Below the pieces are notes generated by a model. That model made no database searches, was not told the origin of the DNA, and worked only from the letters and a program-made list of their open reading frames with translations. Made by a program: the position numbers and the translations under genes. Positions 21,149-29,406 of a stretch of 64,000 nucleotides of DNA are shown here, in pieces. The first letter of the stretch is position 1, and each line of letters opens with the position of its first letter. The DNA is from Octopus vulgaris. Lineage: Eukaryota. The DNA is taken from assembly GCA_951406725.2 (NCBI GenBank), contig OX597819.1:35588001-35652000 (forward strand). The letters are read 5' to 3'.

Positions 21149-21958
21149 GATGAGCATGAATCTAGTGATTAGTGTCTAACTTTACTGGACCAATGAGCAT
21201 GCACCTGGTGATTATTATCTTACCAATTTGGATAGGTGAGTATATACCTGGCTATTATTATCTAATCAAACTGGACCTGTGAATATGCACCAGATAATTA
21301 TTTCTAATCAAACTGGATAGGTGATTATGTACTGGGTGATTATTATATAACCAAACTGGACAGGTGAATATGCACCTGGTGATTATAATCCATTCTACTG
21401 GATAGGTGAATACCTGGTGATTATTTTCTATTCAAATTGGACAAGTGATTATGTACCTGACGTTTATCATCTAACTAATCTGGACAGGTGAGTATGTACC
21501 TGATGGTTATCATTTAACTATCCTGGACATGTGAGTATGCACCTCATGATAAGTATCTAACTACACTGCACAGATGAGTACCTGTTGATTATCATCTATT
21601 CAAACTGGACAGGTGAATATATAACTGATTATTATAATGTAACCAAATTGAATAAGTGGAGATGCACCTGGAAATTATTATCTAATCTAAATCTAATTTG
21701 ACAGGTGAGTATCTGATGTTTCTTATCTACCCAATTCGGACAGGTGAGTATGTACCTGATGATTATCATCTAACAAATTTGAACAGGTGAGTATGTACCT
21801 GGTGATTATTATCTAACTATACTGGTCAGGTGAGTACCTGTTGATTATTATCTAATCAAACTGGACAGGTGAATATGTACCTAACAATTATCATGTAACA
21901 GACTGGACAGGTGAGTATGTACTTGGTAAATATTATCTAATCTAATTTGACAGGTGAT
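21149..21958 (+). repeat. Minisatellite, about 18 units of 39-43+ bp
   Basis: Consensus close to TGGACAGGTGAGTATGTACCTGGTGATTATTATCTAATCAAAC; unit starts at 21314, 21357, 21399, 21438, 21481, 21524. Confidence 0.95.
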
Positions 21959-22061
21959 ATTATAATCAAAGCTATCTAAATAAAGTCCTCTTCTGTTCTT
22001 ACTCAATTACTTTTCATCTTTTTTCATATCTCCATTTTTTGTTTGTTTTCAGTTACATTAT

Positions 22062-22248
22062 TGAAGTAAGACAATTTACAAAAGACGGGCATGACCTTAT
22101 GATAGGCTTCATTTAACATTCAATACAGCATAATTCACAGTATGTTCCACAATAAAAGCAGGCAAGGTGGCAAGAGTTAACCACGAGCAATGAAACATCT
22201 AATGAGGACAAACTTTAGATACAAACACAAATCATACTATTTAGGACA
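22062..22248 (-). repeat. 3' LTR of the Gypsy element
   Basis: Direct repeat of 25104-25254 with an extra 36 nt (about 22085-22120). Confidence 0.88.
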
Positions 22249-22250
22249 AA

Positions 22251-22480
22251 GGTGGCGAGCTGGCAGAAGCGTTAGCACGTCGGGCGAGATGCTTAGCGGT
22301 ATTTCGTCTGCCGTTACGTTCTGAGTTCAAATTCCACCGAGGTCGACTTTGCCTTTCATCCTTTTGGGGTCGATAAATTATGTATCAGTTATGCACTGGG
22401 ATCGATATAATCGACTTAATACCTATGTCTGTCCTTGTTTGTCACCCCTATGTTTAGCCCCTTGTGGGTAATAAAGAAAT
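22251..22480 (+). mobile_element. SINE family A inserted next to the 3' LTR
   Basis: Full-length match to 11673-11905. Confidence 0.92.
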
Positions 22481-25103
22481 ACATAATGGATCATACATAA
22501 AAGGAAGAAACATTTTACAATACGTGTTTGTTTAAACAGTTTTGTTGTTTGTTCAGGGATGTTAAGGTTTCTCAACCTTCAGAACAATTGGACTATTTAG
22601 AGTCTAGGTTTCTCTATTACGCAAGTTGTAAGGTCTGGTTCTGATAAAGGAAGTGTGGTGACGGTGTGATCGCAAAATAGTGGAATGATTAGGGTTAGTA
22701 TTGGAGTTAAGGGATTCATTTTGATTAGTATTATAGTCGGCAGAAGACTTCACATCATGTGTCTTATCAGGTAGTGCACCTATGTCTTGGATTTGATCGA
22801 CAGCTCCCTCTACAAGAGAAGAATGTTCATATTGTTCACAAGTGTAAGTAATCTTTGCTTGAGGGATACTCATGTCTTTCGGCAGGTGCAGCTGGTCTGG
22901 GGGCTGCTGTGAGATAGGGGCTGGCTTTTGAGCGTACAGGTCTACTACGTCCTTTTCTTTGGGTGGAGCCTGGTGGCTTAGAGACACTGTAGTTTCTCTT
23001 CTATTCTGCAGTTTAACATGAGCATAGAGTGGATTGCAGTCCAGTAACTCCACTTCATCCACCAGCAGTTCATGTTTGGAAGGTCTCACATTTTGTCTCA
23101 TCAGAACAGGACTTGGTGATAGAAGCCAACTGAAAAAGGCAACAGGTTTTCTACTTTGATTAAGAGTTGCTGCAATAGCTATGTCTGAGGCATCCATCTC
23201 AACCACTAGGGGTAGAGTTGGGTCAATAGTCACAATAAATGCTTTTGTGATTTCTGCTTTTAAATACTCAAAGGCATTTTTCACTTTTACTGGTAAGGGG
23301 AATGTTTTATTTATTATGAGAGGACAAACTTTATCAGAAAAATGTGAAATCCATAATGAGTAGTTAGAGAACATGCCAATGACCCTTTTTGAAATTTGGA
23401 GTCATGAGGGCCAGCTTGTTCCTTCAAAGATTGCAATCTCTCAGGATCAGGTTTGATGTTTCCTTTTGATACTTGAGACCCTAGTAACTTGATTTCCTTT
23501 GCACTGTAAATGCTCTTTATTTTCATTGAAGATTATGTTATTCTTCTTAGCACAGTTGAGGAAGTGCGCGCGATTTTTGTCATGGCTTTCTTGATTCTCT
23601 CCACAGAAGGTAATATTATCCAAGAATGCAAAAGTATTCTTGATCTCTTCTCTAATCATATTGTCCATGATGCGTTGAAAACAGGCAACTCCATTGGTGA
23701 CCCCAAAAGGAATATGCTTAAAATGGTACAAGTGGCCTCTGGCTTTGAAAGCTGTAAAATGTCTCTCTTCTTCCTTAATTGGTATCTGATGATAGGTGCT
23801 GTGGAGATCTAATATACTGTACATTTCATACCTTGACATGCTCTCAACTATCTCATTGATTCTTGGCAATGGATAAGCATTGAGCTGAGTGAAGCGGTTA
23901 ATGGTCTGACTGTTTTCAACTACGAGTCATTTCTCATGTCTTTCATTTGTTGTTACCAAAAGCTGAGCCCTCCAAGGTGATTTTGAAGGCTCAGTGATGT
24001 CATCACATAACAGTTTTTGTATTTTGAAATAAGAGTGGTGCTTCAACTTTTGCTGCTGCTATTCCACACACAGAAAAAGTAAGTTTTTCTCCTTTGACAG
24101 AAATCTGAAGTCCTTCATGCTCATCCAAGAAATCATGTCCCAGTATAACATCTGAACACAGTCTGGGTACACTTGACCTTGGTAGCAGAGTTGCACAAAA
24201 CAATGTCCTTCTGTTACACTTGAAAGTTTCGTGGAAGCCATGGAAGTCTTTCTCTCTGAGGGATAAGTGTTTAGTTCCAGGGATTTGGCAAGATCAGTGA
24301 AGATGTAGCTCTCAGAACTTTCAGTGTCAACAAGAGCTTTGATAGAGGTGTCATTGATGGAAATATTGATGATAGTTTTAGACAGGCTAGTAGGTGCAGC
24401 TGCAATAATAACTACACTTAATTGAGGATCAGAGGCAGATACAAATTCAGACCATGTAGAGTTAGGCCTAGATTGGCAAACCTTTAAGAAATGTCCCTTT
24501 TTACCACATCTTTTGCCAGTGGCATTCTGTGCAGGACATTTTGACCTAGGATAGGTTGTGTAAGTAAGGGATTGCCTTTCAGCCATTTCAAGAGATTAAG
24601 CCAAGTCAAGACCCCTTTGAAGGTCAAGAGTTTTATTTTCCAACAGTCTCTGCCTGATACAATTTGAGCTTAAACTACTGATGGATGCATATCAAATGGC
24701 GTGTTCACAATTCTTTTCTGCAGTAACAACTTTAAAGTTGCATTCTTTGGAAAGTCCTTTAAGCTTTTGTAAAGACTGGTCTAAGGTTTGACCTAGATCT
24801 TGTTTTGTAGTAGCGAGAATACGCCTGGTGAATATTTCATTCCGTGGTTTTAACATCCAAGTTTTCAAGAGTTTCATTAGCAGTTTCATAATCAGGGCAT
24901 TCTGTAATATGTTTGTACACTGATGGAGCCAAAAAATTTACCAGCAAGTGGAGTGTATCAGGATTTTGATCTTCAACAGAAGATAAGAAATTGTTGAAAG
25001 TTTGGTGCCAGTGGTTCCAGTTCTTTGCAGCATCAGGAGAATCAAGGTTGGCATCAAAGCATTCCAGTTGAAGAAATCATTCCGTTTTGAATGTTAAATA
25101 AAC

Positions 25104-25254
25104 TGAAGTACTACAATATACAAAAGCAATACATCGTACTTCACAGTATGTTCCACAATAAAAGCAGACAAGATGGTAAGGGTTAATCATGAGCAATTAA
25201 ACATCTAATGAGGACAAGCTTTAGATACAAACACAAATCATACTATTTATAACA
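25104..25254 (-). repeat. 5' LTR of the Gypsy element
   Basis: Direct repeat of 22062-22248; gag remnant starts about 18 nt downstream. Confidence 0.88.
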
Positions 25255-26077
25255 ATTATATATGCCTATGTGTCAAGACACCACCATCACCACTACCACC
25301 ACGATCATTACCACTGCTGCTGCAACCACCATCACCACCGCTGCTGATATCCACCACCACCGCTGCTGATATCCACCACCACCGCCACCACTGCCGCTGC
25401 TGCCGCCGCCACCATCTCCACCACCACCATCCTCCTTTTGTCATCATCATCATCATCATTGTCGTCGTCGTTGTTGTCGTCATCGTCATCATCGTTATCA
25501 CCATCATTATAATGCCCCCACCGTTCTCCTCTTTTTCTTCCTCCTCATCATCCATCTGTATGAAGACATTATTATTTATATAATCATCATCACAATTATT
25601 CAACAATATACTAAGACACCATCATCATCATCATCATCATCATCACCATTTACCTGTGTGACAAGACATCATCACCATTATTTTATTCATTCACCGATGA
25701 ATGAAGACATTAGCATCTTCAACATCACCATCACCATCATCACCATCATCATCACCATCATCCTATTAGCAACATCTCCTGTCCTGCAATAATATACATG
25801 TCAGTAAGGTTGGTAAACCGAAATTAGATAATTAGCAAAAGTTAAGTAGATAGGGAATCTTATTTACCACTGGAATGTATAAGACACTGTGTAGTTTATA
25901 TTATTTGTCAATGTATGCTGCCAAACACACACACACACACACATGCACACACACATGCACACATACATGCACACACACACGCACACACACACACACACAC
26001 TCACATCAGATGCATACACACAAACATTCACATACATATCTACATGCATAAGCTACACATACATAAAAATAAACACA

Positions 26078-26495
26078 GGTGCTGGAGTGGCTGTGTGGCA
26101 AGTAGCTTGCTTACCAACTACATGGTTCCGGGTTCAGTCCCACAGCATGGCACCTTGGGCAAGTGTCTTCCACTATAGCCTTGGGCCGACCAAAACTTTG
26201 TGAGTGGATTTGATAGACGGAAACTGAAAGAAGCCCGTCGTATATATATATGTATGTATATATATATATATGTGTGTGTATATGTTTGTGCATCTGTGTT
26301 TTTCCCCACAACATCGCTTGACAACTGATGCTGGTGTGTTTATGTCCCCGTAACTTAGCGGTTCGGCAAAAGAGCCAGATAGAATAAGTACTAGGCTTAC
26401 AAAGAATAAGTCCTGGGATTGATTTGCTTGACTAAAGGCGGTGCTCCAGCATGGCTGCAGTCAAATGACTGAAACAAGTAAAAGTGTAAAAGAGT
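26078..26495 (+). mobile_element. SINE family B, full length
   Basis: Head, core, internal (TA/TG)n and (GTAAAAGA) tail are all present. Confidence 0.9.
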
Positions 26496-28420: not shown

Positions 28421-29124
28421 AATTTCCCAGTTTTCTTTTTCTCATACATAATACACACACATATATATATATGTGTGTATATGTATGTATATGTATGTAT
28501 AAATATTTATATATATATATATGTGTGTGTGTGTGTATATATACTTTTATTTATATCTATATATATATCTGTATATATATTTTTATTAATATCAATCTAT
28601 ATATATATGTATATACATCTTTATTCATATCTATACATATGTATATAAACATAACCACACATATGTGTTTATGTATGCATGTGCATATGAGTGTGTGTGC
28701 GAGTGTGTGTATGTATGGTATATGTTCCTCTGTGCATGTGTATATACTCTGGAGCTGGATTACGACTAGACTGGCAGCGAGAAAGAGAGAGAGAGGGAGA
28801 GAGACAGAGAGTGTGGGGGAGAGAGGGGGAGAGAGGAAGAGAGAAAATATGAACCATAGATGTACCAGATGTTGAGGAGTAAGTACCAGCAGGTGCAGCC
28901 AATGAAATATAGCTCAAGAATTCCTCAGATGACTTGCTAGTTGTGGTAGGTTACAGTGCTTACCTATGAAATATAATTAGTATTGTATGCGGCTGTAGTG
29001 AAAGTAAAGTATCTAGGATAGAAAATAAGTAGAAGCGGCTTCAAGAAGCTGTTACATCTGTTGGCATAAAAAGTATACAGGTTTGTATACTTTTTGTGTG
29101 TGTATATATAATACATACATATTG

Positions 29125-29156
<32 letters not shown>

Positions 29157-29162
29157 ATATAT

Positions 29163-29325
29163 ACGACAGGCTTCTTTCAGTTTCCGTCTACCAAATCCAC
29201 TCACAAGGCATTGGTCGGCCCAGGGCTATAGCAGAAGACACTTGCCCAAGATGCCACGCAGTGGGACTGAACCCGGAACCATGTGGTTGGTAAGCAAGCT
29301 ACTTACCACACAGCCACTCCTGCGC

Positions 29326-29326
<1 letters not shown>
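29163..29326 (-). mobile_element. SINE family B, 5' half
   Basis: Reverse complement of the 13941 head and core. Confidence 0.9.

Positions 29327-29406
<80 letters not shown>

Follow-up and report, generated by a model that had tools for sequence, protein, structure and literature searches.

To our knowledge, animal LTR elements are as a rule taken to be primed by tRNA, and self-priming is regarded as limited to the Tf1/sushi group. In Tf1/Tf2 of Schizosaccharomyces pombe, Tj1 of S. japonicus, the Tf1/sushi group and Tcn1, the primer site beside the 5′ LTR complements the element's own LTR and not a tRNA (PMC4600332, PMC7175516, PMC6317226). Self-priming has been shown for Tf1 and, in the available text of PMC4600332 and PMC6317226, is inferred for Tj1, the Tf1/sushi group, plant Tcn1 and the plant TAR copia elements. 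According to the accessible portions of the respective reports, the Tf1 primer is 11 nt long and is cut by RNase H (PMC7175516), and about half of the Tf1 cDNA carries the primer site copied into its 3′ end (PMC11042837). The TAR elements (Houba/Osr-1) are plant Ty1/copia elements, in which self-priming was predicted from an LTR complement of at least 10 nt starting 0-5 nt past the LTR (PMC6317226, in the part available).

The element described here lies in a 64,000-nt stretch of Octopus vulgaris DNA, referred to below as the window. It represents a clade of Gypsy elements, in most families of which the primer site is likewise located beside the 5′ LTR and complements the LTR of the same element. 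The clade resides in invertebrates of many phyla and would use the mechanism that is proven for Tf1. The complement in the clade also has the length and starting position used for the TAR prediction, although the TAR elements belong to another superfamily and another kingdom. Since this signature is shared with TAR copia elements across superfamily and kingdom, it arose more than once.

Architecture and decay of the octopus copy

The Gypsy copy spans positions 25254-22062 of the window on the minus strand (3,193 bp), in a microsatellite-rich animal genome. It is a Ty3/Gypsy LTR retrotransposon, with paired TG...CA LTRs, a target duplication and the domain order gag-protease-RT-RNase H-integrase, which holds in the window remnants and in the relatives. 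The best solved-structure match of the relative P0007 was Ty3 Gag-Pol. The features of the copy are the following.

25255..25259, minus strand: upstream target-site duplication, ATAAT on the element strand
25104..25254, minus strand: 5′ LTR, 151 nt, TG...CA, without 36 nt between 25127 and 25126
25087..25102, minus strand: primer-binding site, 16 nt, one base (25103) past the LTR end, complementary to 22123-22108, no TGG
24590..25085, minus strand: gag remnant with stops and frame breaks, first codon position at 25085-25083 by homology
24015..24370, minus strand: aspartyl protease remnant, ends approximate, frame-broken
23450..23926, minus strand: open stretch of reverse transcriptase (RVT_1, E 3.6e-20), with the D-N catalytic motif found in most relatives
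23111..23401, minus strand: connection and first half of RNase H
22604..23131, minus strand: C-terminal part of integrase and end of the polyprotein
22249..22485, plus strand: interspersed repeat, likely a tRNA-derived SINE, 237 nt, with its head against the 3′ LTR, at the place of the purine tract in relatives
22062..22248, minus strand: 3′ LTR, 187 nt, TG...CA
22108..22123, minus strand: candidate self-primer segment of 16 nt, whose end falls at the poly(A)-signal position, the hexamer being non-canonical in this copy
22094..22107, minus strand: second conserved stem-loop, 4 bp with a 6-nt loop, starting at the base directly past the paired segment
22057..22061, minus strand: downstream target-site duplication, ATAAT

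The 5-bp duplication ATAAT on both flanks was absent from the first-pass annotation of this locus. The two LTRs are identical at 135 of the 151 aligned bases (89%; K2P 0.115) and are separated by one 36-nt gap. At about 23131-23111 approximately 330 codons are missing, which comprise the rest of RNase H and the zinc finger and core of integrase (residues 735-1061 of P0007 are unmatched). With this loss, and with stops and frame breaks throughout, the copy is dead. The annotation had placed gag about 18 nt past the LTR; homology supports the position, but the triplet found there does not encode a start, and a stop follows at codon 3. Its statement that no polypurine tract is visible holds for this copy, in which the repeat occupies the corresponding position, as had been noticed, whereas intact relatives have a normal tract.

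The repeat at 22249-22485 has 12 other matches in the window and contains a B-box-like motif recognised by eye; neither ARAGORN nor Rfam returned a match for it, and ARAGORN found no tRNA genes in the window. It directly adjoins the first base of the 3′ LTR, is oriented oppositely to it and is extremely abundant in the sequencing runs that were compared. Two further repeats were observed in the surroundings: shortly past the downstream end of the element, a degenerate minisatellite whose repeat unit measures about 43 nt (21162-21961), and another interspersed repeat present in two 240-nt copies of opposite orientation (26054-26293 and 29111-29350; 87% alike).

Primer site and LTR complement in the window

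The window sequence bears out the core of the first-pass annotation, which had described a 5′ LTR followed by no TGG-type site and an exact 13-nt complement between 25099-25087 and 22123-22111, extendable to 16 pairs with one G-U (25102-25087 with 22123-22108). The 13-mer occurs once per strand in the window. The 36-nt indel was also recovered, in that 22120-22085 of the 3′ LTR have no partner in the 5′ LTR. A complement of at least 13 nt appeared in 9 of 20,000 dinucleotide shuffles of the 3′ LTR (p ~5e-4) and in none of 86 other 30-nt windows of the element, where the longest was 10 nt. The best complement of the primer site to the 5′ LTR of the same copy is only 6 nt, with a duplex energy of -4.0 kcal/mol vs -16.0 kcal/mol with the 3′ LTR, and the gap removes 13 of the 16 paired bases together with the stem behind them. 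Therefore, the window copy itself could not form the structure and, since the two halves sit in different LTRs, the pairing is attributed to its parent element. The end of the 3′ LTR alone folds no better than shuffles (z +1.3), which is expected because the primer site is absent from the folded piece.

Whether the 36-nt segment is normal for the family was judged from contigs of 4 of the 24 sequencing runs, which were compared with the window through matches among the few pieces listed; depth in these contigs is no measure of copy number. No RNA data set was listed for the window, which carries no information on its expression. A 4,853-nt contig (run X9, for which RNA status is a guess) aligns without a gap to all 187 nt of the LTR, at 21 differences. 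The distance to its next matched piece falls about 220 nt short of that in the window, which would fit a copy free of the SINE. Contigs from runs X4 and X6 match 24721-25126 with 14 differences and continue with 96 letters without a listed fit, 25126 being the indel point. The segment is not unique to this LTR, a possibility raised in the annotation, as the X9 contig carries it and the X4 and X6 contigs leave the window 5′ LTR at the indel. Given the ungapped X9 LTR, these break points and the relatives, the simplest reading is that the 36 nt were likely lost from the 5′ LTR of this copy by deletion after insertion. The case made by the window copy is weak by itself, and the strength of the finding rests on the relatives.

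Relatives, hosts and placement of the clade

A search with the reverse transcriptase stretch gave 425 proteins at E <= 1e-30 among 520 candidates, and the best 120 of the 425 were listed, 51 of which are single polyproteins of 1,140-1,252 aa. Among the matches listed, the closest named protein is from Octopus bimaculoides (80%), and the named hosts are molluscs, coral, sea anemone, flatworms, nematodes and aphid. The earlier proposal of a self-priming lineage in a mollusc is thus supported as to self-priming, but not as to its restriction to molluscs.

Two CCHC knuckles are present in 44 of the 51 full-length relatives, and the RT motif Y/FxDN (D-N, not D-D) in 91 of the 120 listed relatives, many of them with intact polyproteins; the same D-N motif is described for Cer7-12, in which its activity is untested (available text of PMC554778). 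A chromodomain was found in none of the 12 full-length relatives scanned out of the 51, at E up to 0.05. The clade therefore differs from the Tf1/sushi chromoviruses in the lack of a chromodomain (12/12 scanned), in the Gag knuckles and in the RT motif. Two scans of viral contigs yielded no relatives, and an Atlas search returned generic Gag clusters only.

Searches at the locus level recovered 10 loci from the genome collection, and from metagenomes the best 80 of 309 were taken. A gag start was located in 85 loci, five of the 10 genome-collection loci having no usable one; the 79 with at least 110 nt upstream of gag were kept (6 dropped) and, at a gag DNA identity of 80%, formed 37 families. 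Gag identity between family representatives has a median of 47% and ranges from 32 to 80%. Intact copies measure 4.0-4.2 kb, with LTRs of 150-220 nt and a purine tract ending in AA before TG. Among ten two-LTR copies checked (three families, two loci being apparently one insertion), nine are flanked by 5-bp duplications, and in the copies examined the LTR does end at the CA. The contigs of L001-L010 were found in bacterial bins (Ekhidna, Rubritalea, Metamycoplasmataceae and others), where they carry animal-type LTR retrotransposons and long tandem repeats. They are likely host contamination of bacterial assemblies.

The clade possibly belongs to the Cigr-1 group, which is, on the circumstantial basis of host pattern and element sizes, the best candidate for a name. 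Cigr-1 has a 245-bp LTR and a 3,630-bp ORF, which fits the single ORF of about 1,200 aa and the short LTRs of the clade. In the available descriptions, the Cigr-1 clade of Gypsy is reported from Ciona intestinalis, molluscs and annelids and, among nine mollusc genomes, is listed only for Biomphalaria glabrata and O. bimaculoides (PMC6238403). These two are also the only ones of the nine species to appear among the named matches listed here (best 120 of 425, most of them unnamed). The primer site of Cigr-1 goes unmentioned in the accessible parts of PMC6238403 and PMC8556966.

The Saci2/lennie elements resemble the clade in their single Gag-Pol ORF, in variable LTRs and primer sites and in flatworm hosts. 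They differ in a 4-bp duplication, in greater length and in primer sites that were read as tRNA sites (PMC12471100, in the text available). Membership in Saci2 was set aside, as the duplication is 5 bp in the window and in 9 of 10 two-LTR copies vs 4 bp in Saci2. Duplication length and the published descriptions make it likely that Saci2/lennie is another clade. The peptide motifs of the clade had no match in the readable supplements of PMC6238403 and PMC12471100, and its primer-site starts had none in the accessible supplements of PMC13524379, a weak null in that the control terms were unmatched too.

Covariation of the primer site with the LTR

In 53 of 79 loci and 29 of 37 families (28/37 by first member), the 60 nt preceding gag contain a perfect complement of at least 11 nt to the LTR; the same was true of 2 of 740 shuffles and of none of 74 windows inside gag. 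For a position-by-position analysis, an anchored set of 32 cases, i.e. 31 families and the window, was chosen for an arm of at least 9 nt and a CA anchor, leaving out five of the 37 families with arms below 9 nt and L063, which has no CA anchor. In 31 of the 32, pairing begins one base past the LTR end (position 1 pairs). The 12-mers at the primer site are all different (32/32), each tracking its own LTR. Positions 5-12 pair at 7.8 of 8 with the LTR of the same family vs 3.8 of 8 across families, and none of 100,000 permutations reached the observed sum of 251 (best 163); kinship is ignored in this test, but the median gag identity is 47%. The covariation that the first-pass annotation had suggested looking for is thus strong. 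Three or four pair types occur at each of positions 5-13, and double changes are found inside families too (the L015 group; L061 vs L082).

Across positions 1-13 of the anchored set, 407 of 416 pairs are Watson-Crick and 2 are G-U. Pairing is kept in 30 of 32 cases at positions 12-13, in 23, 19 and 15 of 32 at positions 14, 15 and 16, and declines to background by 17-18. When G-U was scored equal to Watson-Crick, 62 of the 79 loci paired at 12 or more of 13 positions, with 785 Watson-Crick pairs, 8 G-U pairs and 13 mismatches. The scarcity of G-U, the 29 of 37 families, the covariation and the second stem described below refute, at the level of the clade, a chance complement in AT-rich sequence. 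Such an explanation is scarcely tenable, even though the window copy alone gives a probability of about 5e-4 and its halves do not lie in cis.

The complement falls below 11 nt in 8 of 37 families. The helix is retained but interrupted in L013, L060, L067 and L090; the primer site is missing in L080, and no good LTR partner was found in L084 and L089. In L064 and L066, CA-A-TGG lies about 14 nt ahead of the gag match, and these loci yielded neither a good LTR complement nor a pair of LTRs. Their TGG may be a tRNA site, possibly marking a tRNA-primed branch of the clade, or merely part of an in-frame start codon. As a separate observation, in the L011, L028 and L061 groups the primer site reaches or enters the gag start codon, where the helix may also influence translation initiation.

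Intact copies with a tRNA-complementary site, named in the first-pass annotation as evidence that would speak against its idea, were not encountered: TGG is absent from the primer site in all 32 anchored cases, L064/L066 outside the set being ambiguous. It is nevertheless worth considering that a host tRNA, half-tRNA or other small RNA primes these elements and that the LTR match is incidental, as tRNA priming is the usual Gypsy mechanism, TGG follows CA-A in L064/L066, and primer-site variation in Saci2-like tapeworm elements has been read as tRNA switching (PMC12471100, in the text available). This explanation is very doubtful for the clade, where 0 of 32 sites begin with TGG and 32 different 12-mers each follow their own LTR; the Saci2 elements, moreover, are described in the same text with 4-bp duplications and 4.7-5.2 kb, as against 5 bp and 4.0-4.2 kb here.

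The second stem and the poly(A) signal

Two further features were missed in the first-pass annotation. The LTR segment ends at a poly(A)-signal-like hexamer, which is AATAAA or ATTAAA within the last 10 nt of the segment in 21 of 32 cases; the other 11 have a degenerate hexamer but retain the pairing. Furthermore, a short stem of at least 4 bp starts exactly at +1 past the paired segment in 28 of 32 cases, compared with 6-16 of 32 at +2 to +8. Its mean score is 9.9 vs 6.7 +/- 0.4 in shuffles, and none of 2,000 shuffles reached this mean. The short stem is mostly RCCW with WGGY, varying in concert, and its first pair is G-U in 15 of 32 cases, so that in its behaviour it resembles an ordinary RNA stem, unlike the long helix. 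Judged by these patterns, the short stem looks like a selected RNA stem and the long helix like a templated one. Folding of the natural leaders from intact relatives gave the long helix, and the short stem was stacked on it in 6 of 7 (two leaders at z -3.1 and -3.3).

The extra stem beside the primer helix (28/32) is a likeness to Tf1, in which Lin and Levin reportedly found in 1998 that an extra stem is needed; the two stems may be equivalent. The helix itself measures 13-18 nt in the clade and ends at the poly(A) hexamer, vs 11 nt in Tf1.

In HIV-1 a poly(A) hairpin hides the poly(A) signal in the 5′ LTR. The position of AATAAA/ATTAAA in 21 of 32 segments might thus mean that the helix only hides the 5′ LTR signal, since a signal in R needs suppression at the 5′ end, and that priming is by something else not yet seen. 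We consider this improbable. The pairing is kept in 11 of 32 cases without a canonical hexamer, occlusion requires neither the one-base register to the LTR end nor the near-absence of G-U, and it would by itself leave no primer; it is, however, compatible with self-priming as a second role of the helix.

A model of priming

We consider it probable that the clade primes reverse transcription with its own RNA, from the 5′ end, in the Tf1 manner. The complement, its fixed register one base past the LTR, the covariation, the lack of a tRNA-type site and the second stem are observed, and from these sequence patterns we infer the start site, the cleavage and the primer. The transcript would begin 11-16 nt ahead of the helix end, at the 5′ edge of the segment or slightly within it, and its 5′ piece would fold back to pair with the primer site. 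Cleavage by RNase H where the long helix meets the short stem would release a 3′ end, from which synthesis would proceed through the 23-71 nt that make up U5 and what is left of R. The primer would be copied during plus-strand synthesis, so that the primer site would be rewritten in each cycle. Such copying would account for the near-perfect Watson-Crick match and for G-U pairs being so few. As the segment has the hexamer at its end, masking of the 5′ poly(A) signal is a likely further effect of this helix. An R of 11-21 nt is known in retroviruses (PMC3601003, in the part available), and the remaining R of the clade would be short.

In 9 of 31 cases the A of an initiator-like motif (TYAGT/TAAGT) coincides with helix position 11, while 11 other matches are scattered over the 75 nt examined; a start there would give an 11-nt primer, matching the Tf1 length. 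No TATA box at a fixed distance was found in the relatives examined. The contigs of L033 and L035 start at the 5′ edge of the complement, and a reading of these ends as transcription starts was rejected, as the 77 and 55 nt of LTR that they include are typical assembly word lengths.

The model contains a tension, in that pairing runs 2-5 nt beyond the initiator-like position, and a transcript starting at 11 would not account, from its 5′ end, for pairing at 12-16. Either transcription starts at 13-16, or the 3′ copy of the segment pairs as well. The latter leads to an alternative in which the partner is the copy of the segment at the RNA 3′ end, or a small LTR-derived RNA acting in trans, where pairing would circularise the genome, aid strand transfer and perhaps supply the primer. 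The segment is present at the 3′ end of every full-length transcript, and this copy could supply the full pairing 2-5 nt past position 11. Nevertheless, the short stem stacked behind the helix and the loop of 23-71 nt fit a local 5′ fold, a cut 3′ copy would presumably lose the R needed for the first jump, and no precedent for a 3′-end variant was found in the literature examined. It is therefore judged unlikely, and priming from the 5′ end is preferred.

The broader interpretation is more tentative, and we hold it as a possibility slightly short of even. It states that in an old, large animal Gypsy clade outside the chromoviruses self-priming evolved independently of Tf1/sushi and converged on a two-helix cleavage substrate, that the primer is the poly(A)-signal region, with a helix that both silences the 5′ poly(A) site and primes, and that the site is rewritten from the LTR in each cycle. 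Of its parts, an origin independent of Tf1/sushi appears likely.

Implications

No report of self-priming in an invertebrate, non-chromovirus Gypsy clade was found in the literature searched, with subscription journals, Repbase and GyDB outside the search. The existence of a widespread invertebrate clade able, as is likely, to do without a tRNA would mean that the priming mode switches more than once. Such a clade would presumably also escape control by 3′ tRNA fragments aimed at primer sites, and its elements would be missed or mis-annotated by tools requiring a tRNA site. Moreover, its many families serve as a natural set for covariation analysis, from which the cut site is predicted with single-base precision, and this would make the mechanism directly testable.
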